From Amoebophrya sp. A120 (taxonomy: Eukaryota; Protista; Dinoflagellata): DNA of 64,000 bases. Under the pieces are notes generated by a model. The model was not told the origin of the DNA and did not search any database. It was given only the letters and a program-made list of their open reading frames with translations. The position numbers and the translations under genes are program-made. The stretch is from contig CAJINV010000017.1 of assembly GCA_905178155.1 (NCBI GenBank), positions 1,108,722 through 1,172,721 of the forward strand, read 5' to 3'. Below are positions 10,701-34,700 of the stretch, one piece after another. Positions within the stretch are counted from its first letter, which is position 1. The number at the start of each line of letters is the position of its first letter.

Positions 10701-13700
10701 CAAGTCCGTGTCGCCAATTTTGTGGGCCAAAAACACCAAGGGAGAGTACATCTACGACAAGACGAAAAAGACCCACTGGGTGTTAGGCCTCGGGACGATG
10801 CTCGAGGGAAAAGTGAAGCTGAACACGTTGGAACTTGCGCAATCTACAGACACCGCCCGCGGCGGCACGCACAAATCCGACGTGTACTACCAGTGGGACC
10901 AGATCAAGGTCGGCAAAGTCGAGGACAGCGAGAAAACCCCGCTGAAGGAGGGAGACGTGCTTTTGAAAATTGGCAGCAGAGACGACTTTGAGATGGACAA
11001 AACCGGGTACGAATTGACCGACAAAAACGGGCGGAAAATTATCCGGATGCGGGAAATTCCCTACATCTCGCTGTCCGCTCTGGAGGACGAGTTGTCGGAC
11101 CGCTGTTGGGTAGAGGTGAGGCGAAATGGAGAAATCAAAAAGTTCCAAATGCCCCCTGCGAAACTCACGACCGGATTTGACGTGTGTACCGGGAAGGTGA
11201 CCGGGGTCTGCAAGGGCGCCGCGAAGGGCGGGGGCGGTTTGTCGGCGCTCGCTGGGTTGACCACGACGGAGGAGCCTCTGTCCGCGACCTCGCAGCTGAA
11301 GTTGAACTTCATGCACAGCTCAATGGACAGCAGTAGCGAAGTGGTCACGACCAACGTGGATCGCGATTACGAGGTGCGGGTGTTCGTCGGGAGCATGACC
11401 GACGGGTTCAGTTTTAAATCCAAAATGATTCCCACAAAGGCAGGCGATGAGTCGTTGGACAAGAAAAAATCGGTGCGACGGTCCGACTCCGCGCCTTTCG
11501 GGTCCCTGGATCCCTCGAATTTGATGATGTCGCACGCGACCGACTCCATCAGTTGGAAGCCGGCGAGCGAAGGGAACCAGTTGCAGGTGACGGAGCCGGC
11601 CTCGATGGGCGCCGAATGGAAAGAGCTTCCCGATACCAATTTGGGCTATTACAAGTACAGTCTCAAGACGGGCGGGAAGTCTTTACGAACGGATATCATC
11701 ATGGAGTACAAAATGGTCAAACCCAGGGAGAGCGGAGACGACCTGATGAGCCAACTGGCGGACGTATTTATTGGCATTTAGATGGAGCAGGACCAGGAGC
11801 TAATGCTTGTTAGAACTTGCGTATGCAGAAAATATGTATGGCTTTTGCTGCTAGTCCTCGTGCTATCGTATTCTTGTTGCGATCTTAAACTGAGTCTGGT
11901 AGTGTGTAGTCGACGAGGCAAGAACACATGAAACATGACATGTTGAATTTAACTACATCAGGCCAAAGGCATGTGCTGTGGCGCGGAGGGCGTTGCCGGC
12001 GATAGCTCCAAGGGCCCGGAGTTCGACGTGGACGATGCAAAATTCTTATCACACAGAAAAAAGCTGGCAGGGCACATTTGTAGCGCAAGAATAAACGCAC
12101 AAAAAAAACCTGTATTGCATATCGGAAACAGCATGCTATGGGGCCACCCATGACAAATTTTTGTGTGTGTTTATTTTTGCCTTACAAATCTGACCTGCCA
12201 GCTTTTTTCTGTGGGATAATTCTACCAGCGAATTTACTCCGAGGAAGCCAAGTACGACGCCCACACGTGTTTGACCGGCATGGGCATCGGGAAACAGCCC
12301 TTGAAGCCGCAGTTCGACCGGGCCATCACGGGGGAGCAGGTGCAGGAGGAAACTGATAGCAAGGACGTGGTATGCATTGCAAAAGTATCGTATTCGTATA
12401 AATGCAATACAAATTTCTGCAGCATGAGAAATAAAATTTGTAATGCAGATTTAGCTTAAGAAAGGGATTTGTAATGCATGATTGCAATACGAGTACGATA
12501 CTTTTGCACAGGATACGTGGAAAATGTGGACAACCCCTGGTTCCGCGACCTATCAAGTGCAAAAATGTTTGGGTCTGAGAGAGCATGAGCACAACTTTGT
12601 CATGCACATTTTCCATGATCCATGCTTTCTGTGACGTATGCCAAAGCATCACAGATTTTTTGAGCGCTTATCTATGCGCAGCCAGCATGACAAATACCCT
12701 CTCCGCGTAGCCGAATTTGAATCCTCTTGCACAGGTTTTTTTAGCATCCAAATGCAGCATCACAAGACCCAGACATTTTTGAATTTGATACGACCCCACC
12801 TACGACACAAAGTACTGCCGACGAATCCTCCAGCTGCCCATTCCGGAGAAGCTCGCACTGGAAAACGCGGACGGCGAAAAGGTGCTGGCTAACTTGAACC
12901 ACATCAACAAAATCGTTTTGCGCGGGATGGGCAGCTGCTCGCGGGGGCAGTCCGAGGTGTTCTTGGTGCTGCGGCAGGCGAGCCGGTCCCTGAAGTTGGA
13001 CTTCTCCGTGGTGGGCTCGAGTTACTACGCGCGGTCCGTTCTGGCGAAACTGAAGGAGAACCCGACGCCCGGGCAGCAGGCCATGGAGCGCACGGTGACC
13101 GGGTTGTGCAACGCGATGTGGGAGAAGACGAAGGAGCTGGGCGGCCAGCCGATCACGGACCAGTTTGTGTCCATCGAGAAGTGGAAGGTGGTGCCGGGCA
13201 ATCCGTTTGCGGAGGCGAGACTACAGGTTTCCGTGGATGTGGACCTGGACAAATCCGGTTTTGTAGAACAAGGAACGGAGGACGGATACGATTTGAAAAC
13301 CAAGGAGTTGGTGGACCACTGCGCCAAGGCGTTCCAAGACAACGGCAAAGGGTTTCTCACCCTGTTTCTCCGCGATCTCGCCGAGTTGATGGGCTCCGCC
13401 ATGACGCAGGAGGAAAATACCGCGTTTGCGACCATCACAGAGACCTTCATCCCGACAAAGGGGAAGCCGGCGGCGAAGTGCTACCTGGATTCGATCAAGG
13501 AAAAGTCGAAACTGGGAACGTTGAAGAAAAAGCTCACGCAGATCAAGTTCGAGGACGATTTTGATCACCCGTGTCTGAACCAGGCGGTGGGGAAAGACAC
13601 GTTGGAAGTGTGGATCTGCGGACCCTGCTACAACGGCGTGGAAGCGAACTTCAAGGTCGCTACGGCGTCCATAACGTGCGAGAAGGACGCGGCGAGGACA

Positions 13701-16700
13701 AAGGAGCAGTTTGCAGAGGTAAAACTGCATTATCCTATGTAAAAACGTACCCACCCCATAGTTAAGATGGGGAATCGGCTAGACAAATCCACAAGCTTTG
13801 GCTGTTTCGCATGACAAATTTGGACGCGTAGCGTAGTGCTGTTTGAGCTAGTTCAGCAGCATTACAGATCTAGTCTCTCATGCTGATTGGAGCATGACAA
13901 ATTTCAAAACACCATTAGAAAATGCTCCTCATGGGGCTCCGCATGAGAAACATTTTAAGCATGCAGATTTGCATGGCAACTATGGCGTGGGTACGTTTTT
14001 ACATAGGATATGCATTCCGACGTGTTCTGCGGGCGGGACGGCATCAGTGTCGAGGCCTCCGACGTGATCGCGGCCTCCCTGGGATTCCTGGCCAAAGACG
14101 GCGGAGCAACTTTGGCGAAAAAACAAACGAGCAAAAGTGGCGGAAAAGTGTACAGCGGAATCGTGCAAAGTATAGACAAGTAGAGTTGTTGTGTACGTTT
14201 TTCCTGTATTTATGTATGAATCTCTGTGTTAGTGTTTCGCTTTCGCTTTCGAGGAAACACTGAAACTGATGTCTCTATGTTGTCACAAGCCGCCTGCTGT
14301 ATTAATAAATATTGTAAATCCCGTGCCTGTTGGTCCTGTCAGGAACTCGCCCACCGATGGGGTTATGTTGACCACATCGCTGCTAAAAAAGAATGCGTGC
14401 ATACAGTAATAGATGAACAAGTATGAAGTAGGTGACCACAGGAATGATCTTTTGTCTCTAACTGCCCCTGCCCCCTCTATCTCTCTCAGCCGACCAAGAC
14501 GAGACCACCCCTGCGACAAAGGCGCAGATTATGGAGCAAACCGCTCTCCACAAGGGTTTGTCCCCCGAGGGGGTCCCCTACCGTCTCTCCGACGCGTTTG
14601 ACCGGTTTCCCAACGCGTACGTCGGGCGAAAACGGTTTCAACTCTCGGTGCTCGGCGACTTCAACTACGAGATGGCGGGGCGGATCGAAAACCGGCACGT
14701 GCCGGTCCTACACTACTTCTCGCCCGACTACCAAATGGAGGTCCCCGTGAAGCACCTCAGCTTCCCGCGGCGCGACTACTACAACCACTTCTACTCGCAG
14801 ATGAAGGAAAACCAGCGGTGGAACTTCTTGTTTTCGCGCGTCATCACGCTGGTGTCCATCCTGATGGTGATCTACATGGGCCAGGCGAAGTCCGCGATGA
14901 ACGGCGCACTCGACGCGGGGGCGTCGGAACTCTCCCACCTCACCGAGCACGAGAAAAAAGCGGCGGTAGCGGCCGCCAAGAAGACCGCGGAGACCAGTGC
15001 CGGGTTCGTGCAGTTGGTGGCGCTCTTCGTCGGTACCTTTGTGACGTTCGCGACGGCGGCGTATCCGGACATTATGGAGGCGTACAAGGAGAAGGAGAAA
15101 GAGCGGCTGAACGAACTGAAAGATGCGAACATGAAGGAGTCCGCGAAGATGTGCGGGTTGGTCGCGCAGTACGACAAACTCCTCTGGTTCTCCCAGAAGC
15201 AGCACCGCAACTTCGCGCTGGACGCGGTCATGGACGGGGCAAGTTTCATGTACGCGGCGGAGGTGATGCTGATCCTAATTCTCCTGTTCGGCCACGAGGG
15301 GTCGCCGTTTGTCTTGAAGATCCCGATGGCGCTGGACGCCTGGATGCTGATTCTGGTGACCGGGTACACGCTGGTGAAATTAAACGCGGAATTCCTCGCC
15401 GTGCAGGCGGAGAAGATGAAAAAGCGCATCGCGGAGGCGGATGACCGCATCATTGCGGAATACGAAGCGAAAATGAAGATTTACACCGAGATATCCTGAG
15501 CAAAAATATCCCCTCCACCCTATAGTCAATTTGCTAAATCTGCAACACAAATCTCCAGGAATTTTTGGGAGTTGTGCGTGACAAGTTTCCATCTGCAGTG
15601 TAGTGGTGGTTAGCGAGGGAAGCCGCATGAGAGATCGACTTTGTCATCCTGTTTACGGCATTACAAATGCCAAAAGACGACTAGAAATGCCTCTCATGAT
15701 GGGGATGCGCATTACAAATGTTGAGCTGGGCGCGCTCAGATGGCACCCCGTCCACGATTTTCTCCCGATTTTTTTAGATTTTTTTTTTAAAAAAAAATTT
15801 TGAAGTCGATGTTTGCAGGTGCGAAGTGGCCTGCTTTGAGAGCCTGCTTGTGACTGCCGTCAGTCGTATCTCAGTACTACATCACGCCAACAGTATTTCA
15901 ACTGCACTTGCCCGCGAGTCATCACCTGTTTTTTTGGTTGAGATGAACATATACAATAGCTGCATCAATGCTTAGACATAAAAAGATCGTAGTGCTACTG
16001 TGTTCGCGTTTTTTTTTCAAGGAGTGGTGAGAGATATAGAGCTAGCTAGCACGCAATCCCGTTTTTTTTTTACTGTACGTACACAATTATGTATTTCATC
16101 GTGATCTGCACGTCGCCCGGGTCCGTCGTCTCGCCACTCCGCATCGCCGCGTAGCATTCCCGCCTCCACCGTCAGCTGTCTTTTTACCGCGTCCTCGTTG
16201 CGACTTCGGAACCCGCAAAACCCGATTGTGATTCATGATGTAGAGCGGGTCGATGCGGGGAAAAAAAGCTCAACCTTCCGTAGAAGGGAGGAAAAATCCA
16301 CTTCCATCCGTCGGCAGCAAGCAGCAGATCCAACAGCACCACCGCTGTTTCGTCCGCATCTCGACGTCCACTTTCCAGTCGTCCGCGCCACAACGAAGGA
16401 TGGCGTATTCGCAAATCCGCATTCGCTCCACGCCGCCACCACAGCTCGTCCACGCTGCGATAGGAACCACCTGAGGTTCAAAGTTTGCGAAGGCGGACGG
16501 AAGTTCCACCGTCGTTCCAAATCCGCACTCCAGCCTCCGCTCGTGGCTCCGTAGCAGCCAACTCCGCATCGCGTCGTCGCATCGCGGATCCACATCGCCG
16601 TTCGCAGGCGGAGCAGTCGGGCTCAACGCCGCAATTCCGCTTTCCACATCTCGCTGCCACCGCCGGTAAGTCCACATCGCAGCTCCGCATCCACTCCTGC

Positions 16701-19700
16701 CGCCGCAAATCCGTCTACGCCGCCACGAGAACCACCAAAGGTTCAAGGGAAGCGAAGGTTGTCGTCGCGAAATCCACATCGCAGGTCCACCGCGCGGCTC
16801 CACATCGCAGCTCGCCAACGCCGATCCACATCGCCGCTCCACAGCTCCACATCGCAGATCCACAGTCGCTCGCTCCACCGCAAATCTCCGTTCACGCGGC
16901 GATGGGAACCGATGGGGGTTCAAAAAATTCCAACGCTGCGGTCGCGGCGTCCACATTCGCAAAATCCACAGTCGCATCTCCACATCGCAGCCCCGTCGGC
17001 ACTGAATTCGCGGCGCAGCCCGACGGCCCGATCCGGTGTGCTCGTCAGCACAAAGTTCAAACTACATTCTATTGCTGGCGTGATGTAGTAGCAGGCTATT
17101 TTACAGCGTATGCTAAGGCACGATTATCTTTTTCTATAGTAAACGCTACAGCCTCCCGAATTTCTATCCCGCCCGGGGAGGCGGCTTGCATAAAGCACTG
17201 CACGCATGCAACTGTCACACCGATCGCGCTTTTCTTTACTCTGTATAGTCGCACCGATATTACACATGCGCTTCTGGTTCATCACCGACTTTTCATTTGT
17301 ATGCTGTGATCTACACCGACAACGTTCTCACCGACTTGTGCATTCATGTCTTGCATCGTGTTTCATCAAAGTTTGTCATGGGCAACAAGTAGAACATTAT
17401 GTAGAAAAGATGGAAAAAAGCAGCAACTAGCTGGACGTCGACTCTATAACTAAGCTTTAACTTCCCCCCTCCTTCTGTAGATGGTTCTGCTTGAACTCAA
17501 GTAGAACATTTCTACAAAGGAGGAATTTTACATTTGCGTCAACATCTCACACATCCACCATAACAGAGTTGTTTTTGATATATTATACAGAAAAATTTTA
17601 CATATTATTTTTGATTAACAACTCTGTTCCCGCTCCTATTTACGTGTTGAGCTTTATTTATTATTCCCTCCACCACGTGTGAGACTGTTGGATATGGGCC
17701 TCCTGCCAGTAGGAACAGTGAGTTCTTTACGAAAACATTGAAGCCTACAAATATCATTAAGTCCCCGACAAAATGACTCACTGACTGACTTACTGGTCCA
17801 TACTTTTACTATTATGTACTTGTGGCAAGATGAAACTGTGCATTTTCGAAGTATAAAAAGTGCGAAACAATAAATCAATCAAAACCTAGCAAAAGTTGCT
17901 TGAGTAGTATCCTCTGGTCGATCAAACCGACGGTGATGAAGCAGCAAATATTGGTATGTAAAGTGCGACTATTGCAAACAACTTTCACGGCCAAAATTAT
18001 CCGTCCAACTACTCATCCTCATCATCGGATCCGCCCGCGACCGCGTTGTTGGCAATGGGGGCGTTCACGTTGGCCTGCGCACCACCCGGCACGTGCAACT
18101 GGAGGTTGATTCTGCGTCTCTGGGGCGCGGGCTGATTGGCGTTCGCACCGGCCGGGTCGGCACCGTTCGGGAACTGGCGGGTGATCTCACGCCAGAGCAA
18201 TTGCTTCTGGGCGGGAAAGAGAAAACTGAATGGCACCGTCATACTGTTGTAAGCCTGGGCGGACTCCTGGTACGATCCTGATATTATTTTTGGCATGATG
18301 TTGTAGATGCAGTTTCGCATAGTATTATGCTCATTTTTGCTTTGCATAAACCAATCTGTCTTGCATGCAGTAGGTCGTACTTCTAATTGCTTACAACCAA
18401 GAAATTTTCTGTGCGTATACCGTTCGCCAAAGCGATCCGCAACGGACCCTCCTCCAACTCCTGCATGCGGCGGACGAACTTCTCAAACGTCTCACTCAAC
18501 TTCTCCTGGATGGACGGGTACTCGGTGAACAGGCGCGCTTCCAAATCCTCCTTCATCGCTAACATGGTGTTGGCGCGGTCGGCATGCTCCTGGTGCGCAC
18601 CACCGGTGTAGCAGTTGCACATCTCGCGCATGATCTCGTGCAGGGAACGCCAGCGGTTGCGGGCGGGAAAGCGGATTCCACCCAAGAAGGCGAGCAAGTC
18701 GATCATCTCCTGCTGCGATCCGCGGTTGTCCCAGTCATGCAAGAAGTCAAAAGCGGTGCCAATGGCCAGGATGCGGTTGTCGAGGTCCCGCAGTTGCCCC
18801 TCCACGCGGGTCTGGTCCATGGTCAACAAGTAGCGGCGCAAGGCACCATTGTACTGCTGCGTGAAGTTGCCGGGCAATTTGGTGTAGTACAACGAGGTCG
18901 TGTTGGTGTAGGCGTCGTTCAAACCGATCAAAGTGGTGATGACCGGGTGCGGCTGGGGCAGGTTCATCCACTGGCGGATAGTGTTGACCATCTGACGCAT
19001 CAAGCCCTGGAGATTTGCATTGTAGAAATTACAGACGAAACTATACGACAATAAAGCTGGCACTTCAGTATCAAACTTGTTATGCAGGAAGATTCGTTTT
19101 TCTATCAACCAATAAAGTTCGCTCTCTCGGCTCGTGATAACTCTCAACTCAAGCAGCATGAAAAAGTAGTACCAAATCATGGATCTCCGGCTGGGGGGGC
19201 ACCTCTCCCTGCGCGCGCTTGATCGCTTTCGTCACCATCTCCTCAGCACAACGCGAAGTGTCGAGCGCGCGGGTCAAGTCAGCCTTGCTATGCTATGAAA
19301 AAAACCTTGGAGCAACACACTGTTTTCCTTTCAAAAGGTGCACGACGGGTGCACTCTTCGACTTTTTTATCACTTCTTCTTGCATTTCCTCCACTGTATT
19401 TTGACGTCCTGTTCTCTTGGTACTTTTACAGTGCAGTACTTTCTTTTTTTCAAGTCCCAACCACGCGAACTCATGAGCATAGCATGCAGAGTAAAATCTG
19501 AAAGAGAAAACAGTGCTTTGAGCCAAGGTTTTATCTTTGCATCGTCGTACACGGTGAACTGGGCGTTACCGGTGCGCAAGAAGGTGCCGAGCTGAATCTC
19601 CACCTGGACCAACAGTTCGGCCACGGCGGCAGCGCGGAGCATCTGATGTGGATTTGCAGTATGAAATGCAACATGCGTGCTCATCGTTTCAGGATATGTT

Positions 19701-22700
19701 TCTTATCAATATTGGATGCTTTGTTCGTCATCTGCGCTACACAGTAGTTCTGTCATGCATAGAAGCTAAAAACTTTGCTTCGTCAGTTTCCGACTACGCA
19801 ATACACGACTCAACCGATGAAACGCGCTCATTTTGCAAAAGGCACAACACTATATACGTCCATCGCCTTCTCCCAGAACAACTCCTGGAGCGTCTGTCCG
19901 CCGTTGACGGGGGCACCCTGCAGCAAATGGGTGGAGATGGCGTCTTCCAGCAAAGACACCTGCTGCAGCTCGATCGCATTGCTGATCATCATCATGTTCT
20001 CGCGGATCTCGGGCATGTTGTTGTTGCCGGACACGAACGCGCGGGCCTGCGCGTACGCCCTGTTTTTTATTGTCAGAATGATGTATCTCATGAAATTACA
20101 GTTGCGTTTTTCTGTGGCACTGAAGCATGATTTCAATGGACCGACGTAAGATTACGATGTGAACAGCATCACTTTATCAACAAAAACACACAAATATACC
20201 AGTCGCGAAACTGGACCAAGGTCCGGGGCTGGCGGGCCGCGGTCCGCTGGAAGGCACCACCCTGAAACAAAGCGATGATTCCCGCGCGCTCCACTTCATC
20301 ACGGGCTTCTGGGTGGCGCATTAAACCGCACAGACGATCGCACACGCCGAGAGCACGTAACCCGTTGGCCTCATCGGTCAGGGAGGCAAATCTCCCCTGG
20401 AGATGGACCTGAGTCGTGGTTCTTGGCCATGATTTCCACTTCAAATGGCAGTTTTGTCATGCAGAAATCCATACTTCACAAAAGCATCATGCGATTGTCA
20501 TGTCGGTCAAGTTTGTGATGCACAAGTTCCAAAATTGATGTAGTACTGCCACACGACGTTCTTGATCGAGCGTAGTATGATTGAAATCGGCCCTTCCCAA
20601 ACGGGCCGCTTCGCGGGCGATGATGTCGGTGCGCGTGAAGAGCACGATCTGACGCACCGCCGAGGGCAACGCGGCCATGGACCTGGCGATGACGGCTTCG
20701 TGGGCCAGTTCGAGGTTACCGATCTGGGCGTCAGTCAGGGTGGAAAGGTACTGGACGCGACTCAAAAATTATGCAAGTTGCAACTCTAGCTCAGCACCTC
20801 AGCCGCGTCATGCATGCCTGGCTACTTCAAAAATGCAAAAGCGCATGACAAACTCATATGATCAGATATGCTATTTCACAAGCATTAAGCACGTAGTCGC
20901 ACAGTTGGTCGAGACCAATTTGCATCATAGTTAGCATGACAAAGCAGTAGTGTAAGGTGCTGAGCTAGATATTGCTACCATAACAGACGGGTCCGCATGC
21001 GACCTTCCTGACGCCAGAGGGCACCCATGGCAGCGACATGATTCGCGTCTTGCTGTAGTGGTAATTTTTTTGAATTTACAGTATGTCTTTTTCACATCAA
21101 CAAGCGTCTGCTCATCCATGATAAAGGCATTCTATGCATGACAAGTTCAAAAATGTGTACCGGCAGAGCTGCGTTCTGCAGAAACTCCTGGGCGACCTCT
21201 CCAGTGGGGTGACGGGCCAATCTGTTTGCCATCTTGACACGCTTTTTTTTTCAAAGGAAGAACTCTCCACAAAGGAAGAACTCAAGAAGTAGTTGGCTAC
21301 GGGTTTTGTGTTGATGAAGATGATGAAAAGCAAGTATTAGATGGCGCGCGTCAGAAATTCAAAATTGTAAAATGAAAGTATCCAAACAACATCAAGATCA
21401 TCAAAGCAGCCGCCTTTTTTTCTTCACAATTACCACTGTCAAAGTGAGATCTCAGATCTATCCCATAACTTGAACTACAACAACAACAGTCATCTCATTC
21501 TAGGCACTGCAATGCGCTGCTTCATCTCTCACAAAAAAAAACAAAACAAAGAGCCGACTTATTTGATGATGTCAGCACGTTTTTACCAAGTACTATGTGT
21601 GCTGAAGCTTACGACACGACAACGCCATCATCGACGCCGAACTCACACAAAAAAAAACCTTGCTTTACTTCTGTATTGTGCGCGCAATTCTACCTCTATG
21701 ACATACTTGCATGCTGTGCTATATCAACTCGAGAAGTGCCTTCTTTTTTCATGTATGTTCCACTACTTGCATGTGCAGTCTGTCATGCTTCTTGTATGTC
21801 AATCCAGCGTACTCAATTTATGACATGCACTTCGAAGTCTACTAATTTGTCATGCTGTGTATCACAAAGCAGCAGTACTATGCTGCTTCAACTTCCCATG
21901 AAGAGTTGCGCTATGTCCCTATGTGTATGCATGATGCTACTACTGTGTGGTTTTACTGTCACGCACTACGTCCATCTACAGGTACACTGTTTGTATTACA
22001 AGCTATGTACTTTCACACGAAGTAAGGTCGTTCTACGCAGTTAAGATTGTACAAAGTTGTCAACGCTTCTGGCTTATATATAGGTCTTTTGCGCGATGCT
22101 AAAGTCTACAGCTGTTCCTATGTAATATTCAATTTGTGCACTATATTCTACTACTTGCAATGAAACTACTGTCAGGTACACCACTATTCTACACGGCTGG
22201 CCATCGGTAACTCGGACAAGAAGGCGAAGGTCATGGCGCAGATGGTCAACGCGTCATGGTGGTGATCTAGGGCTCGCAGGTATCCGTTCGCCCATGGTGA
22301 CCATCTCCGTTGCCGCATGACCGCGAGGGTGAAGTAGTCGTGGTGGGCCAAAGTTCGATGACCAGCCGTGAAGTTACTATATACTACTTTACTAAGCTTT
22401 TCTTGTTCTAGTAGTGCTCTTTTTGACACCTTCTACGCATTACAAATTGACGCTTTCTTGTCTACTTAAAGCTACATTTTCTGACATCCTTTAAAAATGA
22501 CGATTTTTCCTCACAAAAAGTGATCACTTTTCCTGCTCAAAAGTGAACTCGAAAAATGAGACGTTTTGCAAATTTGACCTCGAAAAAAAAGTCTTCTGAT
22601 TTTCTAGAAGGTGAACTCGAAAAAGTCTCGCGATAATGGAGAATATAAGTAGGACATGAGTCTTTTTTCTAGACTTTTTTTTTGACTATGCAGATGCAAA

Positions 22701-25700
22701 AGGTGACTTCGAGGAGGAAAAGCGAGAGACTTTTTTTTGTGCTCAAAAGTGATCATTTTTGAGCTCAAAAAGTGACCACTTTTTGTGAGGAATAATTGAG
22801 ATTTCCTTTGAGAGATGAATTGTACAATAAATCAATGCTTTTTGAACCTGAAACTGTGCAGAATATAAGTGTGTTCAACTACAACTTGAGGTGCCCGACC
22901 ACCTTCACTGGGCCGGCACTTGGGACGCCGATTCTGCGAGCACGTCATGCTGTTTACCCGCACCTGCAGCAGCCATCTTTGGCTGCTTTTTGGTCTTGGC
23001 CTTGATCCTCTGCTTCTCCACAAGGACATCGGCGATTTCCAGGTATTCTGCGTCGATCTTCTGGAAATCCAACCACGACGTAGTCGACTTTCCGGGCGAG
23101 AGGTACTTGTAGGTCTGGTCAGAAATGTGCATCAGAGCGTCGAACTCCTTCTGCCTGGTAGCGTCCTTTCCAGCACGTTCGGCGGCAAAAGCACGGATCT
23201 CCGAGGTGTAGGCGGCGTACTGGGACTTCAAAACCTCCAAATCATCTTCGGTGGACTGCGGTTCGTACTTGCTGTTGGAGCTGGCTTTTTCGCAGATGAA
23301 ACGGCACATCACGGCCCACCCGTTTAGGAGGCACTCGACCCAAAGGGGTCCCTCTTTCTCGCCAAACACCATGCTCCTCATGGGCCTCTTCGTCGACTGG
23401 CACTTCATGTCCAGGTAGGGGTGGACGAGGAGCTTTTTCATGTTGTTCGCCAGCTTGGTGTCCACGCACTTCATGCTCAGTCGGACAGCATCTCTTCCGG
23501 TTCTCTTGCGGTCAAACACCGTCGACGCTTCGATGCATTTCCACCCTTCGACTCTCGTTGCGAAGAGACGATTAGCAACCTTCTGTCGCTCCAGCTGATG
23601 CAGTGCGTATTCCTTGCTCGAGAGGTGCATCTTCGCCGTCGCAGAAAGGGCAGTCATGCCCTGCGTTTCCACCTGCGTTGAAGCCTGCGTTTGCGGTTCC
23701 TCCACGACGATCTTGTTCGTCTTTCGCCACGTTTCCGCATGGACGTCATCCGACTGTAGTGGCATTGCTACCATCTTGTTGTCGTCCAGAACCCAGATCT
23801 TGTCGGTCGATTTCGGCGCGGTCAAAGCCAGCATCGTAGGCTGCAGAAACTTCTCCAAGTTGTCCTGCATTTGGGCTTTCTCGCTATTGCTAGCGGAGGC
23901 CCACCCTTCCCTGAGCACCTTGTCCTCCTCCTTTCCCGCCTTGGTCCGCTGCTGCCGGTACGACAGGTTGATCCGTTCTCCACAGAACAAGCACGCTTTG
24001 CTTCTGCCGTCCTTTACGTCGACTTTCATCGTGTACATCGGCCCGAGTGTATCCCGTGAAAAGCATTGAAGCTGCAAGCCAAGCATTACTACTATGCATT
24101 AGATATTTGCATGAAATATGTAAAGGTTTTGCGCACAAGAAATCAAATTTTGTAATGCAAAAATCAACATTTGTGATGCTTGTCATGTAGCTTCAATGTT
24201 TTGGTTGCATACATCGTATCCAGGTCGTATTCGGTGCCGCGGTCGTCGGAGTACAAGTTTATCCAGGTCATTCGCATCCTGCACTGCCACCACTCCTTTC
24301 CCGGATCTTTCTGCAGTGCTAATTGCACCGCTTTGAACGATGATGGAGACAGCACCACGTCTGAAATGAGGAACGTGTGCATTTCCCCCGACGGACGGTG
24401 CTTGTACTGCGTTATGAAGAATGGCGACAATAACGACGACACGTCGTGCACCCCCTGCAGTACCGGCATCGCGATGTTGTCGTCTTCCCCAACTTCGTCT
24501 GCGTCTTCTACCAGCAGTTCGTCGTCGACTATCGATCGCAACAATCTTATCCTGCGAAGAAGGCCAAAGTTTTTGTATGCAAGCATGCGAAGCTTTCTGT
24601 TTCTTCGCAGGATAAGATTGTTGCGTTTCGATAGCATCATCATCCGGCTCGGCGAGGTTCAGGTGAGCTAGATCACCGGGTTCGATTCCAGCAGCCTTCT
24701 TCTCTTGTCGCAGCGATTTCAGCTTACCGCGCTTCGCCCGGATGAAACGCGATATCAGCACAGCAGAAGCCGGTTTAACTTTCGCCCGCACCGTCACCTC
24801 CGGCGGCTTTTCCACTGTAATCAGCTGGTTGGTTCTGTTGCACATAGCGGGTGCAAGTTTTCGATAGTCGCCGTCTTTTGTCAAGTACTTTTGCAGCACT
24901 CGTTCCTGCACCCCTTCGTAGTACAGTTTCTCGCGGTTCACGACAGCAAATTCCCGGACTTCTTCCTCCTCTTCTTCGCTTTCTTCGGCATCCTCATACT
25001 TCAGCTCCGCCGCTAGTAGCTCCTTCTTCTTATCCATTTCCGCTGCGATGATGGTGTATTTCGCTTTTTCGTCGTCGTCCTTCCAGGAATTCAATTTGTG
25101 ACACTTTTCTAGCACGTCCGCCGCTGTCATCTTCACGTCTTCTTCACCGTCCTCCCACTGGTCTTCCCGTTTCGCATCTATCGGTCGTGTGCAGGCGTAG
25201 TGCCGTTTCGCTGCGGGTTCGCCGGTATCGTCGTCTTCTTGATCCGGTAGCAAGTACGGCCGGCATTCCTCTTCCACCACCGAAGCCATGTTTTGCCAGT
25301 CCTTTCTGTTTAGCTGCGCGTCCGGTCGTATGCGTTGAAAATATGTAAAATAGCCTCCTGCAAGTAAAAATCAAAACTGAAAAAGCACTGCAGTTTGCAT
25401 GCAAAAAGTTACGTTCTCATCATGTCGTTGCACAGATTCGTCATGCCTTATGTAGTATGTGGTGCCTTTTCAGAAAAAAACCTGTAATGCAAGAAAGCTA
25501 TGCTACACATTTTCACTTCATAACTCCGGGGATACTCTTGGTTCCAGTCTTGCACCGCTTCGCATGCCACTTGTAACGTCCACCCCGTTTTTCGCAGTTT
25601 TTGGTGCTGCGGTTGGCAACTTCGAGGCATTCGGTGAGGGATTTCATCTTCGCTTCGCGGATGTTCTGCGGCAGATTCCGCATATACCGCTGTACAGAGT

Positions 25701-28700
25701 GAAGCGATATCGACCCGGGATCCCCTTGCGTGTACACGTCGAACTTGCACTTGTCCAACTGCTCCATGGCCTTCTTCAGGTCGACCCGCGCGTTCCCCAA
25801 CCATGTCTCATGCAGATCGCACTGCCCGTCGCGATAGAGAAGAATACAGCGGGAGATGATGAGGACGTGTTGTGCATTTATCCGCGCCAGCTCTATCTGT
25901 TTTGCATTTTAATTCTAAATATGCATTTCAACAGTCCTCGTGTCATGCTGGAAAATGTGCATGACAAAATGGAAAGGTTGTTTTATTCTATACCAGTTCA
26001 AGTTGCGCATCCGAAAGCGTCACACTTCCGATCCCGATGCCGCACATCAAAAACGCCAGATCATCCAGCACTGCCTGTTTGTCGCTGAAGTAGTTGTACG
26101 TGCTGACGAGATCCTCCCGAAAGGTTTGCTTCAATGCCGCCCGTCCTTTTTCCCGAACATTGCTCCGCAGCGTGCTACCATTATAACGCTCGATGGGGCG
26201 TATCAAGTGAAGCAAAAACCAACTCGTCACCAGGAAGAGGAATTGCGTTCCTGATTTTGTTATGAGTTGAAGATGTAAGTTTGTCATGCTGGATTGGCAA
26301 AAATGCATGATTTTTGCATGAGAAAAAATGTGCATTTGCATGCTTTTCTACCATGCACTTTGTGGAACCGTCGATGCATGGCAATACTATGTATTTGTAG
26401 CACCTGTCTTGTTGCGCATGTCCACCGTAAAACCATGCTCCAAGATTTTCTCTTGGCCGAAAGAAATTCTTTCGCCCAGTCCCGTAAAAATTCTTCCTAG
26501 GAAGAACGCGGTCGCCAGGGAGAGCTGCGTCAGACACGACATCACCGTCAGCCATCGTGTCCAGACCGGACATTTGAAGCCGCGGTACAGACAATGCAGC
26601 GCTCGCATGCATTGATGCTTGCTGTTTCGCGGGATGACGAGCAACTTCTGCCGCACACTGCAGTCCCGGAAGAAGTCTTTTTTTTTCGTGTCCATCGGTA
26701 GGCGGTCCAAGAAAGCACACAGCTTCTCGTCTTTGGGTGGTTTCTCTCCTTTGTCCCACGGAGCGAGCCATTGCTCCACCTGGTCGAGGCCGTTGTGGAT
26801 CTTCTCCTGCAGCAGCTTGATGCTGTGAACCTGGATGATAAATATAGAAAACAATGTTGATGCGCATAATATTTCATTTGTCATGCGGAACGTCATAAAA
26901 TTTGTCATGCAGAAACGAAGCAAATACTGCGTGGCTATACCTGTAACCAAAGCCTTTTTTGCCAACCAACCGGGTCGAGGTTCATCGTCCCCAGGTATAG
27001 CTCCGCAACCTGCTTCGTAACAAGGGCGGTTTGATGGACTTTACAGCGTTGCGTCCAAAGTACAACGTCGGACAAGTACTTGGACGCCATGAACAGGCCC
27101 CCGACATAAAACAATGTCGGGATTGTACTACCGCCGGAGTCCGTAACCGGCGACCATACTTTGATGGTGTTCTGCGACCAGTTACTGAAAAAAACTTCCG
27201 GCGAGTGATACGTCCATAACTGGTCTGCCACCTCAAAAGCTTCACTGTACCCCCGGAATGCTGATTTTTGGTTTTGTTGTCGTGGTCCAAAATCGTAGCT
27301 CGATGGGTACATCACAGTATGTGATGGCAGGAAGACGGAGCCCATTTTGTCGATGTTGCCACAGCAAAAAGTTATTGCCACCATGCTGATCATGACGTGG
27401 GCAAACACTTTTATTTTTCCGCGAATGCTATTCTCGAATAGCATGTTTTGGCACGTAGTGCCATCTATTTCGACTCGATAATGTACGAGGGAAAGCCTGC
27501 TGCTGTCGTTGAAGTAGGTCTGGCTGAACTCGAAACACGTCTCGACCAGCAGTGCGGCTAGTTTCCACAACTTCCTCGGAGCGAGGTACGACTGCGAGTT
27601 GAAAAAGGCCGCGCGCTCCTCCTGTTTTTCGTTCTGTTTCGCCGCCGCATCTTCTTCTTGCTTTTTTGTCTTCGGCGCCTGGTTCTTCTTCACCATTTTC
27701 CTACTCCGTGTTGTTACGCCGAAAAACTGGTGCGGAAACACAAACGACGGCGGAAGAACAGGACCGCGCCAGTAGATGCGGATGCAGTTGTTATTATATA
27801 GCTTTACTTAGATGGGATTGCGTGCTAGCAAATTAATTATTTTATCTTAGGTATGTGGGTATTGCTTAGTTTAAAAAAAAAACCTGCCTGCTAGTAGGAG
27901 AATAGAATATGCATTTTGTATTTCCAAAAAAAAATACTTGCGTTTCCCCGTTCTCGTGCTGGCACTCTTCCGCAGCCCTTCCCTCCTGATAGCGCAGCCA
28001 AAAAATCTCTCAGCCTTCTCTTCTCACACAAAAAAGCAGCTCGTTTGGTATTTCGAAAAAAACGTCGCTTCTTGCATGACAAAAAAATTACCGAACACTG
28101 CCTGCAATTATTGCAGATGTAGTTGCAGTTCGCAGCCGCTTCTCGGCGCAAGATGTTACTCGCAGCGACACTGCGAGCGCTTTTGTTTTGTGTGTATCTC
28201 CCACCGCCCGGTCGCGCTACCACTTTCCTACCGCTGCCTCTTCTACCCGCGCCGACTGCTTGCCCGGTTCTATTCTGCAGAGGAAAGATCTTGTTGCTAT
28301 TCACGCGAACGCGAACAGGTGCAGAATCGTTTCCCTTTTTTACAAAATAGCCGACTATACACAAGCCCGCTACAGTTAGAAAGGAAAATCGATAAGCTCT
28401 TTTGCCGTACTACATGATCGTCGTGCTATGCATTTCGAAATGCATAGCACGATGATCATCGACAAAAGACTTTTCGTTTTTCTCTTCAGCCTTCGAAGTA
28501 GCAGCTCTGTAAAAGTCCTCCGCTGTGTGCAGCTGTATCTCAAAACCGAATACACGAGGGTCGACGGTATTATTTGGCTGCGAAAGTTCGCAGCCAAATA
28601 ATCGAGTAACAGCTGCACGTTGATCAGTACTATTTTATTTGCGCCGCACATCCGCGTATGGATTGTTGTGTGTCGTGATTACTCATCGACACACAAGAAT

Positions 28701-31700
28701 CCAAACCTGGGCGCTATGCTACGAAAATAGTACTGATCGCATCGCGGAAAAAAAACTTGTCGCCGAGAATCGAACCGGCGATCGCAAAAAGGGTGAAAAG
28801 GGACTGAGACAAACAACTCGGCCCCTTACCCGCTCGGCCAAACGGCCGAGCGGACTGCATCGGTCATCGACCTCGGAGACCCTATCACAGCCCAATACGG
28901 GCTGTGTACGTTGTCGACATTTTTGATCATGCGTTTCCGCATGATAAACTGCTTTGAGCGACACGACGACAGCCAAGTCGTCTGTCGCGATAGAAGTATA
29001 GTGCCGGGTTTCGAACCCGACCTCGCGAAGGGTGAAAAGGGACTGAGACAAACAACTCGGCCCCTTAACCGCTCGGCCAAACGGCCGAGCGGACTGCATC
29101 GGTCATCGACCGCGGAGACCCTATCACAGCCCAAAACGGGCTGTGTACATTGTCGACAAATTTGAAAATGCGTTTCCGCATGATAAACTGCTTAGAGCGA
29201 AACGACGACAGACAAGTCGTATGTCGCGATAGAAGTATAGAGACGGGTTTCGAACCCGACGCTATCGACGGCCAAAAGGAACTGACGGAAGCAGCTAGAT
29301 CGCTATTCCGCATGGTATGGTGGAGGATCGACAAGTCGAATGACCACCATACCATGCGGAATAGCATCGATGCAGCATACCATGCAGTTTCGACCAAAAA
29401 AATGAGATGAGAAGGCGAAACCGCTATAGAAATGCACCTAACGACGTGAATAGCAACTTTGTTTCCAATGCAAAGTAGACCGTTTTTTTCCAAAATTTTT
29501 CAAAAAAAAAAAATCTCAAAAAATTGAGAGAAAATCAGATGACTTTTTTCATCTGAGGCGCCCAGCTCAACAAATGTTCCTGCCATCGCGCATTTGCATG
29601 ACAAACTCTGGGGAGGTGGGGGCGTTTTTAGACAGGATACGAGAAGAAGAAGCAGGTCATGGACTTCTTCGACCTAAAGAAGTGGATCGAGGGCTTCAAG
29701 AAAAAGAAGGCCGCGTACCAGGACAAGATTGACGCGATTCAGGACCGCATAACCCAGGCCTTCGCGACGGCGGAGAAACTCCGCCAGATGGCGGAGGCGC
29801 GCGCAAAGGCGGCGGAGGAGGCCGAGAAGAAGAAGCTGGAGCAGGGTTTGGTCGAGGAGGGGGAAACGGAGGACGAAATGGAGACGGTGTTCATCGGGAA
29901 AGTGAACGAATCCCCGGCGAAGAAGCCGCTCCTCTCCACGACCGCCGGCGCGGGCGACGTGGAGATGACAGCGTTCGGGTCTGACAAACCCCTCCCCAGC
30001 GCACGCAGACAAAAATTCGACTCCGTGGAGAGCTCAAATTCCGCCCCTCCGCTGACCGCTAGAACCGTGGAAAAACTCGCGGCGAGCGAGAAGTCGAAGT
30101 GGGACGACATGCTGGTGAAGTCTGCTGGCGATGTCGGCGCCGCACCTACCGCCGATTCAGTAGACAGCATCACCGCGCCCACGAAAAAGTCCGAGGTGGT
30201 GGTGATTCCGGGCGCGAAAGCACTGGTCGAGGTGCAGGCCGTCACCGGGTTGTCGCAGCAGGGCCCGTTCGTTACGCTCGGGAAGCTGGTCCGCGCGATT
30301 TTGAAAACGATCACCTACCCCTTCGTGGTTCTGCTCAGCCGGGAACAGTTGTCCGCCCTGATCAAATCCGTCGCGGCGGTGTTCGGAACCCTGGGCGTCA
30401 TGTACGCGCTATTCAGCACCGATTCGACGTTTTCCATGGTGTTCATCCTGGCGATCACCGGGGTCGTCGCAAAAGCAATCTTCGACGCGGGCGCGCGCGC
30501 GGCCACGCCCAGCGAGGCGGAGAAGGAGGAGCAGAAGCTGCAGCAAAAAGCGAAAGCGCTGCAGGAGCGAGCGCAACTGGAGGCGAAGAAGGTAACCTCC
30601 ATCCACACCAAATCGGTCCTGAAGGACGACGGGTTAAACGCGAAAGACCACGTGGTGTCCGCGTTGGAAGCGTGCGAGGCGGTGGACGCGGCCTGGGCCA
30701 AGGGCGAGCACACCTTCGTGAAAATGCCGCCGGCGATGATAAAAACCCAGAAGCGGGTGGTGCCCGACGTGAACCGCGGCTGGTTTGAACTGAAATTGAA
30801 CCACTTCGCGGCGGGAAAGCAGCCGGACGCGCAGGAGATCGGAACCAGCCTGAACAGCGACGACATGTTCACCATGAAGGATTACGTCTTTGACGTGTGC
30901 GACATCATCGTGGACACGTTAGGTTTGCGATTGCCTTCGGACGTAAAGCCGGTCAGACACACCAAGACGCTCACGAAAAAACTGCTGCAGGTACTAGAAT
31001 TGATTCACTGCTAGTATCGGATGAAATTGTTGAATGATCAGCATGATGGTAACAGGATCACTGCGGGGGCAAACCTGGTCCTGAAATGATGATGCTATGC
31101 GAATGCAACAAAAATTCGCCAGAAAAAAAATAAAAAGATAAACTCAAACACAGGTTAACAAGCCTCTCGGAACTACCCGTGACCTTGTTCAGTCCTTTCC
31201 GATCCAGATTTCCGTCGAGACGCTCCGGGGCGAAGCGGAGAAGAACAACAAGCAAACGCAGGTCGCGTGCACTCTATCAACTGTAAAAATGTCTGGGTCT
31301 GGAAGAATTCATGTTTGTCATGCTTGTCTGGCATGGCTCTTAAATCTGTCATGCACGTTACCCAAGAGCTCTGCTTTTCTGTGATGCAGGAGCGCAGTTT
31401 GTCATGCAGAATAGGCAACACCTAGGAGCTCAGAAACTTGTCATGCTGAGCCAGCATCTGTAGCTTCATCATGAGACGCCACCCAGCATCACAAGTTTCC
31501 AGACCCAGACATTTTTACTTTTGATACACCCTGCAGATTGTGAATTTCGTGGGGAAGGGGCAAGCGGACCGGGCCGATAACGACAGCTACTTGACTATCA
31601 TTTGTAAAAACGTCCCCACCCCAGAGTTGTGATGCAGATTTGCAATGACAGGAACATTTGTAATGCGCATCGACATGAGAGGCGTTTCTAGTCGAGTTTT

Positions 31701-34700
31701 GGCATTTGTAATGCTGTAACCAGGATGAGCAGGTAGATTTGTGGTGCGTTTTTCCTTGCTAGCCTGCACTATACTAGGGACTGCATCTTGTGATGCGTGA
31801 GTCCCAAAACTTCTGGGTTTGTGTTGCAAAATTTCCATCTTGACTCTGCTGTGGGGACGTTTTTACAAATGATATTGACCCTGACCGACCAGAAAACGAT
31901 CGGCGCGAAGAAGGGCGCGGGCGTGAACATTGACACGTACAAGGTCGGCGACGACATTATTTTCAACGACTTGAAGAAGGGCGACCTGTTCGAAATCGTC
32001 CAGGACGAAGAGGGGGAGGAAGTGACGCGCATCCCGAAGTTGGCCGACCAGGGCGCCTGGCAGAAGGCCACGGACGGACAGAAGCTCACGAGCGCCGACA
32101 TCGTCTACGAAGACCAGGAGCCGTTTGAAATCGCCGAAGACGGCGGCCCGGATTCGCCAACGGGAAGTACTCCAGGCACCGAAATAAACGCCCTCGTACG
32201 CAATTGCCGCTGTCTAGCACTACAGGCGGACCCTCCCCCATACATCACTTCAGTCAAACGTCAGGCGGGCTCTAGGGCCTTCGTGGTCGTAGTGCCTGGG
32301 AGATTCACACTCGCTCCGGAGCCGGCGCCACGCCCTGGGCGACAAAGCAAAAGCGCTTTGCCGACGGCTCGCCCCGAAAATAACTTGTGCCGGGGCGCAG
32401 TGTCGCAATGATTATTTTTCGCGCATTCTCCAGGGGTGAGAAACGCCCCGCGTCGGCTTTTGGATTCGGCGCCCCCCACATTGAAGTTTCGCGCCTTTTC
32501 GTGCTATGCGCTGCCAGGCCAGGTGCGGCCACGCCGGCGACTTCTCTGCCGTGGTGCATAAGTAATAAATAATCTGCCTTCTTTTGCGTACGAGCGTTGG
32601 CGAGGCGATTCCGCACGCGGGCCGCTGCTGCAGCGCGGCCTGCCCGGCTGACCTCTTTGTGCGTGGGATTCTTTCTCGACTTGGTCTTGCACGGCCATAC
32701 TAGCGAGGGGTAATGGAATCAGGCGCGTTGTTTGTTCGTGGGCTGGAACCGCGGGCGCTTCGTCTTGCGACGGCGCCGCCTTCGTGGTAATTGTGCAATC
32801 CCTTCCACCGTTGGTTTTCAACGCATAAGCATGATCAGCGTGCGTGCCGATCGTTGTTTTGCGTGTTTTCCCCCTCTTGCGCGGGCGGTGCAGCAAAGGA
32901 AGTCTCCAAAGCCCAAGCCGGCGGAACGCGGGTAGGCCTGCACCGACCCCACCGCCTGCGTTGCGTAGTGCGATGGGGAGAGCCCGAAGCGCTCACACTT
33001 TTCGCAGAGAATCGCCTTAGGAAGCGCGCTGGCCTGGCAGGAAAGATGGAAGCGCGGGGGCGCCGCTTGTTCCATCTTGCTTGCCTTGAAAAAAGGCTCG
33101 GGGATGTTTGGTTCTTCCCTGGCTTTGTTGTCGTTGCCCTTTCTTTCTGCGGCCGGGGCATTGGTAGGTTGCAAAAAAGCGCAGGCATGGCCCAGTTGTC
33201 CGGAAAGGAGGCAAACCGTTCACCATTGCCCCGCATCGATCGGGCGGGCCAGGCACCGCGGGCGTTGCCAGCCTCTCACGGTTGGACGGCGGGGCGGGGC
33301 GTAGCTCTCTATGGGCGTTGGCATTCATGTTTCATCTTGTTTGTCTTGCTAGACAGGTCGTGTAGCTGCTTATTCCGTACGAGGGCGTTTATTTCGGTAT
33401 ATCGAGTACCATGCGCGGCGGCGGGGCCCGGTTTGAAATCGCGGAGGACGGCGGCCCGGATTCGCCAATAGGAAGTACCATCCGCGGCGGGGCCGGCACG
33501 ATGATGAACAACTACGTGGAGGGCCAACACAGCGCCGCGCCAAAGTCCCCGCTGCGGGGCAAGAATTCGACCGATTCGCTCGACGGCGCGGTCGCGATGG
33601 AGATTTCGAAATGGCGGAAGCCGGCGCTGCTGGAGCTGCGGCCGGACGACTTGGAGAAATCAAACAGCAGGGCGACGATCTACGAAATTGAGAACACCTA
33701 CGGGAACTACGCGCACGTGCCGAGGGAGCTCCGCGGCACGCCGCTGCCGCAGAAGCTGGTGCGGTTCAAGGTGCGGAACGACGACGGCGAGAAATTCTCC
33801 TTTGCGCCCGTGAAGCCCGGGGCGGGGCAGGGGCTGTTGTGCAAGCAGGAGGGGGAGCTGAGTTTGGAGGAGCAGAAAGCGAGGAAGTGCGCGGATTGGT
33901 TCAACGCAGTGGACGGCTGGTTCGAAGATTTGGGCGCGAGCAGCAACCTGCGGTCCAACGTGCACGCGGTCTTCGACGAGCTGTTTTGGGGCAAGGACAC
34001 CATGACGCAGGGCGGCCGACCGGCGGACGTGAACAGTGAGCGGAAGAAGTTCAAGAAGGGCGAGCGCAAAGACCTCCCGAACCAGCAGAAGGGGCTTTTG
34101 GCGCGCGTGTTGGAGCGGAAGGACGCGGGGTTGACGGTCAAGGAGTATTTTGACTATTTGATGTACGGCGCAGAGGACGATAACGAGTGGCCGGGCTTCA
34201 TCTACTGGTTCCGCTTCAAGCCGAAGGGCGAGCAGGAAGTGGAGCAATTGAACAAAAACCCGAAATTTCGCTACGGTGCGGTCGTGCCGCCCGGCCCGAT
34301 CGTGGGGGCGCTGGCCAAGCCGGCGCTGACGCCGCAGGTGCTCCACGTGGTGCTCACCGACGCGGATCTGAGGGCCCCGGGCGACGTGGTCGACGCCTGG
34401 CAGCCGCAGCGGGGAGAGCCCCACACCGCGGAGATGTTCAAGCTGGACAAGGAGGGCTACAGTCGCGGCGTCGTGGGTCTGCTGAAGCTGCTCCCCGACA
34501 AGTTGCAGTTTGAACAGCCGGTGGGCGACGGCGAGGTGGATGCGGAAACGCTGGCCGACACCTTGAATTTCGATTTTTCCGACACCTACGCAATGTTCCC
34601 GGTGGTCAAGGACGTTTTCAAGATCAACCCCAAGATTATCCAAGACAGCATTTTCATATACATCACACAGCCCACTACCACTTTGATCGCGTTGCTGCAA

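Follow-up and report, generated by a model that had tools for sequence, protein, structure and literature searches.

According to Farhat et al. (2021; PMC7789003), non-canonical introns account for more than 60% of those validated by RNA in Amoebophrya A25 and A120, and introner elements form a subset with inverted repeats of 8–20 nt and direct repeats of 3–5 nt. The A120 inverted repeat is described there as TAT, followed by seven variable nucleotides and at least three A. The same paper counts 29,850 repeated introns, which make up 17% of the genome, reports that U1 was not found and that no transposase was found in A120, and proposes a hairpin-guided joining by a spliceosome without detectable U1. 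Its mapping was limited to 10-kb introns and its analysis to introns of 40–1000 nt only, while the longest annotated A120 intron in its Table 1 (35,152 nt) is given without description. The subject of the present work is an intron of 14,153 nt that interrupts a gene of Amoebophrya sp. A120, found in a 64,000-nt stretch of contig CAJINV010000017.1 (the window, to which all of the coordinates below refer). This intron is an introner that has itself been split by a 13.85-kb transposon-like element, and it is likely that the insert-bearing intron is removed from the pre-mRNA as one unit at the introner's own non-canonical ends, which are predicted to pair.

The 14-kb intron shares with the A120 introners described in PMC7789003 the non-GT-AG borders, TAT inverted ends, a border repeat of 3–5 nt, membership in families resembling miniature inverted-repeat transposable elements (MITEs), and RNA-supported removal, and differs from the range analysed in that paper (40–1000 nt) in being a composite of 14,153 nt. 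According to Gozashti et al. (2025; PMC12130899), A120 introners derive from many transposon classes, and some of them have open reading frames (ORFs) and inverted ends. Supplementary file 8 of that paper holds families of ~300 nt with alignments that extend to column 13,922 (fam21) and column 18,837 (fam135), and these long alignment spans suggest that the data set includes long, composite members. In the large A120 introners described in PMC12130899, however, the large element itself is the introner, whereas here the introner is small and the large passenger is nested inside it; a further difference is that the cargo found here has no Copia/Gypsy-like or other Pfam domain. The word "nested" is absent from the main text of PMC12130899, and the literature search found no description of an introner with a nested transposon, although the supplements of PMC12130899 or PMC7789003 may list this very intron.

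Among more distant systems, the nonconventional introns of euglenids (PMC11282704) resemble the A120 locus in their non-canonical borders, in repeat-like sequences at the junctions, in inverted ends (by which the two ends of a euglenid intron are brought together in RNA), and in their length, which can reach several thousand nucleotides. They belong to an unrelated lineage, and, as described in that paper, are excised as full-length circles after the conventional introns. The MITE-derived introns of Fritillaria borealis, covered by the same source, likewise have an inverted-repeat origin and non-GT-AG splicing, but prefer AG-AC or AG-AT ends and are processed by a modified U2 spliceosome; at the locus studied here, the 3' dinucleotide would be whatever the target repeat happened to be.

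The interruption of the host gene extends over positions 15492–29639 and has inverted ends (TATCCTG... and ...CAGGATA). At the left border (15491/15492), TACACCGAGA is followed by TATCCTGAGCAAAAA, and at the right border (29639/29640), TTTTTAGACAGGATA is followed by CGAGAAGAAG. When positions 15492–29644 are deleted in silico, a single frame stays open for 343 codons on the left side of the joint and for 456 on the right, while with the interruption left in place the best runs of open codons are only 15 (left) and 11 (right). The G–C content at third codon positions (GC3) of the two flanking frames is 0.84 (14462–15496) and 0.82 (29632–31011), which indicates strong codon bias. The sequence-only reading, in which the host frame resumed exactly across the CGAGA borders without a GT donor, and both of the flanking exons were open and codon-biased, is therefore borne out. 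The end of the upstream exon is ambiguous with the direct repeat over a further 5 nt, up to position 15491, and this ambiguity permits six cut registers, with the end dinucleotides CG..TA, GA..AC, AG..CG, GA..GA, AT..AG and TA..GA. GT-AG, GC-AG or AT-AC borders were found in none of the six. The 14,153-nt interruption is a non-canonical intron, and not a U2-type GT-AG intron.

Contigs of six sequencing runs were compared to the region 13600–31950. Two of them (X1 and X2) belong to a set of four probable DNA runs of one sample (X1, X2, X5, X8), and four are RNA-type runs of one sample and one study (X3, X4, X6, X7). The RNA nature of the latter is inferred from their intron-less contigs, as none of these runs is catalogued as RNA. 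Raw RNA reads were taken from X9 and X10, two of three further runs with the same species label.

Three of the four RNA-type runs yielded contigs that join position 15486 to position 29640 and skip 14,153 nt, with five ambiguous letters at the joint: rec1 of X3 (11,205 nt, depth 47.5), rec6 of X4 (3,514 nt, depth 9.3), and rec21 of X6 (704 nt). For a 277-nt contig of the fourth run, X7, the listed placement stops at 15486. The exon junction expected of a spliced product, TACACCGAGAAGAAGAAGCAG, is thus present in the contigs of X3, X4 and X6. The contigs of X3 and X4 also skip two GT..AG introns, 14170–14489 (320 nt) and 30988–31150 (163 nt), as well as three small introners (13726–14010, 31274–31530 and 31591–31874). 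Since these contigs lack introns and show no mismatches in the exons, they originate from spliced transcripts of the same strain. When the seven exon pieces are joined, they give 962 codons that are stop-free in one of the three frames. It was also observed that two GT..AG introns and at least four non-canonical introner introns are processed within one pre-mRNA, the former providing internal controls with canonical borders.

The distribution of RNA coverage agrees with the junction. The depth of the bin 15436–16047 equals that of its 51 exonic nucleotides (3.96 = 51/612 × 47.5), and the interior bins 16048–29511 have no RNA cover in any of the four RNA-type runs, except for depths of up to 1.01 in two bins, traced, as far as matches are listed, to a stray one of ~30 nt. 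The DNA runs, in comparison, cover all of the 30 bins, including the whole 14-kb interior. These data also bear on a technical explanation, by which reverse transcriptase crossed a hairpin and switched templates from one 5-nt repeat to the other, or the contigs were mis-joined. Template switching typically occurs where direct repeats surround a structured segment, as the 5-nt repeats may do here. However, 14 kb retained in the RNA would show interior cover at exon depth, and none is seen in the four RNA-type runs; the junction occurs in independently assembled contigs of three runs, and the protein frame is open solely with the segment removed. An artefact of this kind is thus regarded as highly improbable. 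The exact exon junction in the contigs and the lack of interior RNA cover support splicing, rather than a knockout allele or two separate genes, which were the alternatives put forward with the original proposal.

The 14-kb interruption is a composite: a ~300-nt introner of the TAT-N7-AAA type is split by a nested inverted-repeat element of 13.85 kb (Table 1). The earlier view of the 14 kb as a single element is accordingly abandoned, as the nested element has inverted ends of its own and breaks the small introner. The two introner arms are colinear with the small siblings, and the interruption falls at one single point of the alignment; the sibling at 13731–14010 aligns to both of the arms in the same manner as the closest sibling, at 31596–31874. 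The arms are ~75% alike to the two small siblings, and 75% complementarity extends over 140 nt (inverted pair I1). The nested element is flanked by the direct repeat ACAAATGTT (15714–15722 and 29570–29578), which overlaps its inverted ends, GTTGAGCTGG and CCAGCTCAAC, so that a target duplication may be 4, 5, 6, 8 or 10 nt long. With 5 nt (CAAAT), the element would extend over 15720–29570, in agreement with the positions at which the DNA contigs break (15720 and 29570); its limits are uncertain by ~3 nt. Its inverted end is aligned as GTTGAGCTGGGCGC(G)CTCAGATG, followed by a T/A-rich extension to ~85 nt, and the exact 13-mer TTGAGCTGGGCGC occurs in the window solely at 15721 (plus strand) and 29570 (minus strand).

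Two other origins of this arrangement were considered and rejected. The 14-kb unit might have been an autonomous parent of the small introners, or the small introners might have been MITEs that arose by internal deletion at a 9-nt microhomology. Both are contradicted by the unrelated inverted ends that lie exactly at the single-point break, where the DNA depth, the contigs and thus the copy number change as well.

The DNA depth over the nested interior is 95–117 in X1, as compared to 45–48 in the unique flanks, i.e., about twice that of the flanks in both X1 and X2. The interior contigs of these runs show 73 differences to the window in 12,958 nt (~0.56%), mostly transitions, and lack 16 nt at position 19586. 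The doubled depth, the contig breaks and the 73 differences together indicate that at least one further copy of the nested element, ~0.56% divergent, exists elsewhere in the genome, and the interior contigs apparently follow this other genomic copy. The nested element is young, with its flanking repeat intact and a divergence of ~0.56% from its other copy or copies. With regard to the traits of class II transposons, terminal inverted repeats were found and more than one copy is indicated by the depth and the differences, while a recognisable transposase was not found.

The youth of the insert also favours an explanation by insertion polymorphism, in which the filled copy is a knockout allele of recent origin, and cells or gene copies with the small introner only are the source of the joined transcripts. 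Contigs hide rare DNA variants, and 15 of the 59 DNA joints were listed. The contigs rec8 of X1 and rec16 of X2, however, extend without a break or a mismatch from the end of the nested element across the right arm and into the exon, and since a common empty allele would split the DNA contigs near 29570, their integrity argues against polymorphism. The flank depth of 45–48 in X1, about half that of the insert, gives no sign of a second gene copy. If the empty allele were rare, RNA upstream of the insert would be expected to exceed that downstream, whereas the depths of X7 contigs are similar on the two sides (2.8–7.4 upstream and 3.2–6.9 downstream), a weak hint, as the depth of a contig is a mean. 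Polymorphism is therefore considered improbable, and splicing of the filled gene copy remains the preferred reading.

The 14-kb intron belongs to a family of which other members are present in the window. The introner end motif has eight matches, compared to 0.39 expected, and none of 100 shuffled sequences reached eight. Among 507 pairs of motif starts and ends that lie no more than 25 kb apart, a shared flanking 5-mer is expected by chance in 0.5; eight of the pairs share the flanking 5-mer and have an inverted identity of at least 13/20, and the 14-kb pair is the sole one of these longer than 400 nt. Its ends read TAT-CCTGAGC-AAAAA at 15492 and, on the reverse strand, TAT-CCTGTCT-AAAAA at 29639, with an identity of 14/20. 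A strict scan (flanking 5-mers with at most one mismatch, end identity of at least 17/25) revealed ten small elements of 145–280 nt with TAT.../...ATA ends, which confirms that the sibling introners noticed in the sequence-only reading are real. The published A120 motif (TAT, seven variable nucleotides and at least three A) fits 10 of the 11 window elements on the arm that was checked. The DNA depth over the small siblings amounts to tens of thousands, as compared to ~48 at the unique flanks, which indicates a repeated family. The 14-kb intron thus shows the following features of an A120-type introner: borders other than GT-AG, TAT-N7-AAA inverted ends, a 5-nt direct repeat, a repeated family and RNA-supported removal. 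Taken by themselves, the motif and the relatives of the cargo protein (see below) make an A120-type Amoebophrya the most likely source of the window.

Additional small elements of the TAT.../...ATA type, likewise flanked by 5-nt repeats, were observed in plus-strand gene(s) at 8078–8252, 8408–8641, 12047–12218, 12371–12515, 12551–12790, 37818–38079, 38397–38588 and 40584–40982. The elements at 12371–12515 and 12551–12790 are separated by just 35 nt.

The cut register can be approached by means of the sibling at 31275–31526, which has unequal repeat copies (CACTC and CACCC), a side observation that provides a handle on the register of the whole family. The mRNA retains the T of the left copy (joint 31273 to 31531), so the start of this intron lies no more than 1 nt from the first T of the element, and the downstream copy of the repeat is lost along with the intron. 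By analogy, the cut of the 14-kb intron would remove the element together with one repeat copy, and would start at the initial T of TAT or no more than 1 nt away from it. If the family is uniform, its 3' boundary has no fixed dinucleotide and is set by the distance from the terminal structure.

Under the reading preferred here, a transcript of the insert-bearing gene copy would be processed by the non-canonical pathway that also removes the small siblings. Terminal structure, i.e., the inverted ends and the 5-nt repeat, would set the boundaries of the intron, and not internal signals, with length and cargo being irrelevant. The 13.85-kb transposon would then be a passive loop, and the strong pairing of its own ends could close this 13.8-kb loop and thereby restore the fold of the introner. 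Folding predicts a duplex of the outer ends that starts at intron nucleotide 1, with an energy of −34.3 kcal/mol for 40-nt arms (−18.2 ± 4.2 kcal/mol in shuffled sequences), while the end duplexes of the siblings range from −26.5 to −57.9 kcal/mol. For the nested element (90-nt arms), the predicted energy is −82.4 kcal/mol, as compared to −17.8 ± 3.5 kcal/mol in 100 shuffles. The suggestion, made from the sequence, that the inverted ends pair to define the boundaries holds insofar as an end duplex is predicted; the role of this pairing in removal, and hence end-pairing as the mechanism that defines the boundaries, is itself a prediction of the model.

The nested end duplex, which is far stronger than the outer one (−82.4 and −34.3 kcal/mol, respectively), favours a different route to the same final product, namely a removal in two steps. 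In this case, the 13.85-kb element would be excised from the RNA first, via its own ends and direct repeat, and the regenerated ~300-nt introner would follow. The nested element also shares inverted ends and a short direct repeat with thousands of unrelated "singleton" introners, which are reported as spliced in A25 and A120 (PMC7789003). Twintrons and stwintrons (PMC8469720) likewise have one intervening sequence within another and may be removed sequentially, but their inner unit is a U2 or group II/III intron, whereas here it is a 13.85-kb DNA transposon, for which sequential removal is a rival hypothesis only. The intermediate expected of two steps, with a junction at about 15719/29571 and the introner retained, was seen in no contig listed, although contigs drop rare forms. 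Nor does the two-step route ease the long-range problem, as the nested ends are still 13.8 kb apart. The spliced product is the same for both routes, and the two-step one is considered unlikely, if less so than polymorphism.

Several points weigh against a removal of the whole intron as one unit. The RNA evidence consists of assembled contigs of one sample and one study and includes no raw junction counts, and neither reads that retain the intron nor a lariat, a circle or an intermediate appeared in it. In the raw RNA run X9, all of the 87 reads match in part only, namely at the repeat 31275–31306, while no reads of X10 were placed. The X9 reads show 95–99% likeness to this introner end and then continue into foreign flanks; the X9 sample apparently holds the introner family but not this locus, and may represent another strain. 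The DNA contigs rec8 of X1 and rec16 of X2 reach only 28–30 letters into the nested element, with a bridging rule of 31. The DNA of X1 and X2 contains the insert, and no precise excision of it, as would be expected of programmed DNA elimination of the ciliate type, was found among the 15 of 59 DNA joints listed for these runs; a rare insert-free allele may nevertheless be present in the DNA, as contigs drop rare forms and only these 15 joints are listed. With regard to the mechanism, the outer-end duplex is weaker than those of nine of the ten siblings, one of 200 shuffles gave a stronger one (−40.9 kcal/mol), and pairing over 14 kb is entropically costly.

A more general proposal can be formulated, which at present appears possible but rather doubtful. 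Removal from RNA would be structure-guided and blind to length, and would act on any insertion with inverted repeats and a short target duplication, mimicking precise excision of a transposon. The ~85-nt stem of the nested element would re-close the introner, and introners would be cost-free landing pads for large, gene-carrying transposons in essential genes.

Table 1. Coordinates of the interrupted host gene, the introners and the nested element in the window.
Feature	Position	Strand	Evidence and remarks
Upstream host exon	14490–15486	+	X3 rec1 and X4 rec6 on 14490/14696–15486, 0 mismatched letters; frame 14462–15496 open
Left CGAGA copy of the 5-nt direct repeat (introner target-site duplication)	15487–15491	+	Sequence; joint ambiguity of 5 letters
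Left introner arm, 228 nt, starts TAT-CCTGAGC-AAAAA	15492–15719	+	Aligns to 10–222 of reverse-complemented sibling 31596–31874 (score 150); also to sibling 13731–14010
Nested inverted-repeat element, 13.85 kb	15720–29570		Single-point break of introner, inverted ends, DNA contig breaks and depth
Left terminal inverted repeat of nested element, ~22 nt near-perfect plus T/A-rich extension	15720–15805	+	Alignment
Cargo gene, protein of ~1100–1250 aa, antisense to host gene (putative)	22905–27696	-	At least 6 homologous segments in alternating frames
Two tandem copies of a 239-nt unit in nested element	28789–29260		93% matches
Right terminal inverted repeat of nested element	29486–29571	-	Alignment, duplex
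Right introner arm, 69 nt, ends in TTTTTAGACAGGATA	29571–29639	+	Aligns to 213–279 of reverse-complemented sibling 31596–31874
Right CGAGA copy of the direct repeat	29640–29644	+	Probably removed along with the intron, by analogy with sibling 31275
Downstream host exon	29645–30987	+	X3 rec1, X4 rec6 and X6 rec21 run on from 29640, 0 mismatched letters
Sibling introner, 280 nt, repeat TGCAT	13731–14010	+	RNA joint 13725 to 14011, 285 nt skipped, X3 and X4
Sibling introner, 252 nt, repeat CACTC/CACCC	31275–31526	+	RNA joint 31273 to 31531, 257 nt skipped, 2 ambiguous letters
Closest sibling introner, 279 nt, repeat TTGAC	31596–31874	-	RNA joint 31590 to 31875, 284 nt skipped; alignment

The nested element carries a cargo gene on the minus strand, the start of which is placed at ~27696, where the ORF at 26938–27807 has its first Met. 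An exhaustive HMMER search with the protein of ORF 22908–24098 (minus strand) against 1.84 billion representatives revealed three relatives of 1057, 1115 and 1247 aa (E-values, 1e-37, 2e-33 and 3e-5), all from Amoebophrya (sp. AT5.2 and sp. A25), with an identity of 27–36%. In tblastn, these relatives (P0001–P0003) cover the minus strand from 27369 to 22941 in the frames −2/−1/−2/−3/−1/−3, with gaps of ~100–200 nt between the segments and one in-frame stretch of ~150 nt with two stops. Judging from this pattern, the cargo is probably a multi-exon gene with short introns.

The searches for the function of the cargo protein gave mostly negative results. None of the 13 long ORFs matched a Pfam family, none of the 101 interior ORFs with 70 aa or more reached the cut-off (nine weak matches with E-values of 0.0056–0.071, all below the curated cut-offs), and no Pfam family was found in any of the three full-length cargo relatives. 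A word-index homology search with ORF 22908–24098 returned no relative, and the Protein Atlas contained no usable match for ORF 18386–19231 or P0002. P0003 had no matches in the PDB by sequence and two chance-level rows by profile (Pendrin; E-values, 0.081 and 0.76), while a profile search of 5.8 billion clusters returned just the same family (P0002, P0001 and the 90-aa fragment P0004). The AlphaFold2 model of the 397-aa ORF, obtained from an alignment of four rows, has a mean pLDDT of 53.6 and is confident at residues ~170–335; Foldseek found no matches to this partial model in the PDB at E ≤ 0.001. The nested element may be non-autonomous, or the cargo protein may represent a type of transposase that has yet to be described.

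By codon usage, the most host-like of the interior ORFs are 22908–24098, 19831–20151 and 18386–19231, all on the minus strand. The latter two suggest a possible second cargo gene, and ORF 18386–19231 has no Pfam or Protein Atlas match. No Rfam families or tRNAs were found in the region 15000–30200. A degenerate array of 13-nt repeats (TCCACATCGCAGC) is located inside the nested element at 16562–17019. Long hairpin-forming inverted repeats, which are not of the TAT-N7-AAA type, were observed at 22495–22804 (52-nt arms), 24537–24625 (36-nt arms) and 8781–8869 (44-nt arms); those at 22495–22804 and 24537–24625 are located inside the nested element, the latter in the region of the cargo gene. On the host side, the ORFs 4613–5209, 35138–35848 and 43266–47620 have weak to moderate Pfam matches (PAN_1, MORN and AAA/AAA_lid_3), and most of the long host ORFs have no Pfam family, which is consistent with the rapid protein evolution reported for the genus.

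Introners of this kind have already been published, both as A120 introners (2021) and as large A120 introners (2025), and the locus is therefore a striking new member and not a new system. As a single locus with evidence at the level of contigs, it represents a lead rather than proof. The locus amounts to a natural insertion experiment on the removal of the tens of thousands of Amoebophrya introns that have no conserved splice dinucleotide: the loop of the intron has become ~47-fold larger and has taken up foreign DNA, including an antisense gene, and the exon junction is still exact. This exactness, despite the ~47-fold growth of the loop, argues that the intron ends hold all of the information needed for removal, and that neither internal sequence nor length nor cargo matters. 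The locus also provides a defined substrate in which intermediates, such as the inner junction, a lariat or a circle, can be sought, and a concrete case of an introner shielding its host gene from the later insertion of a much larger transposon.

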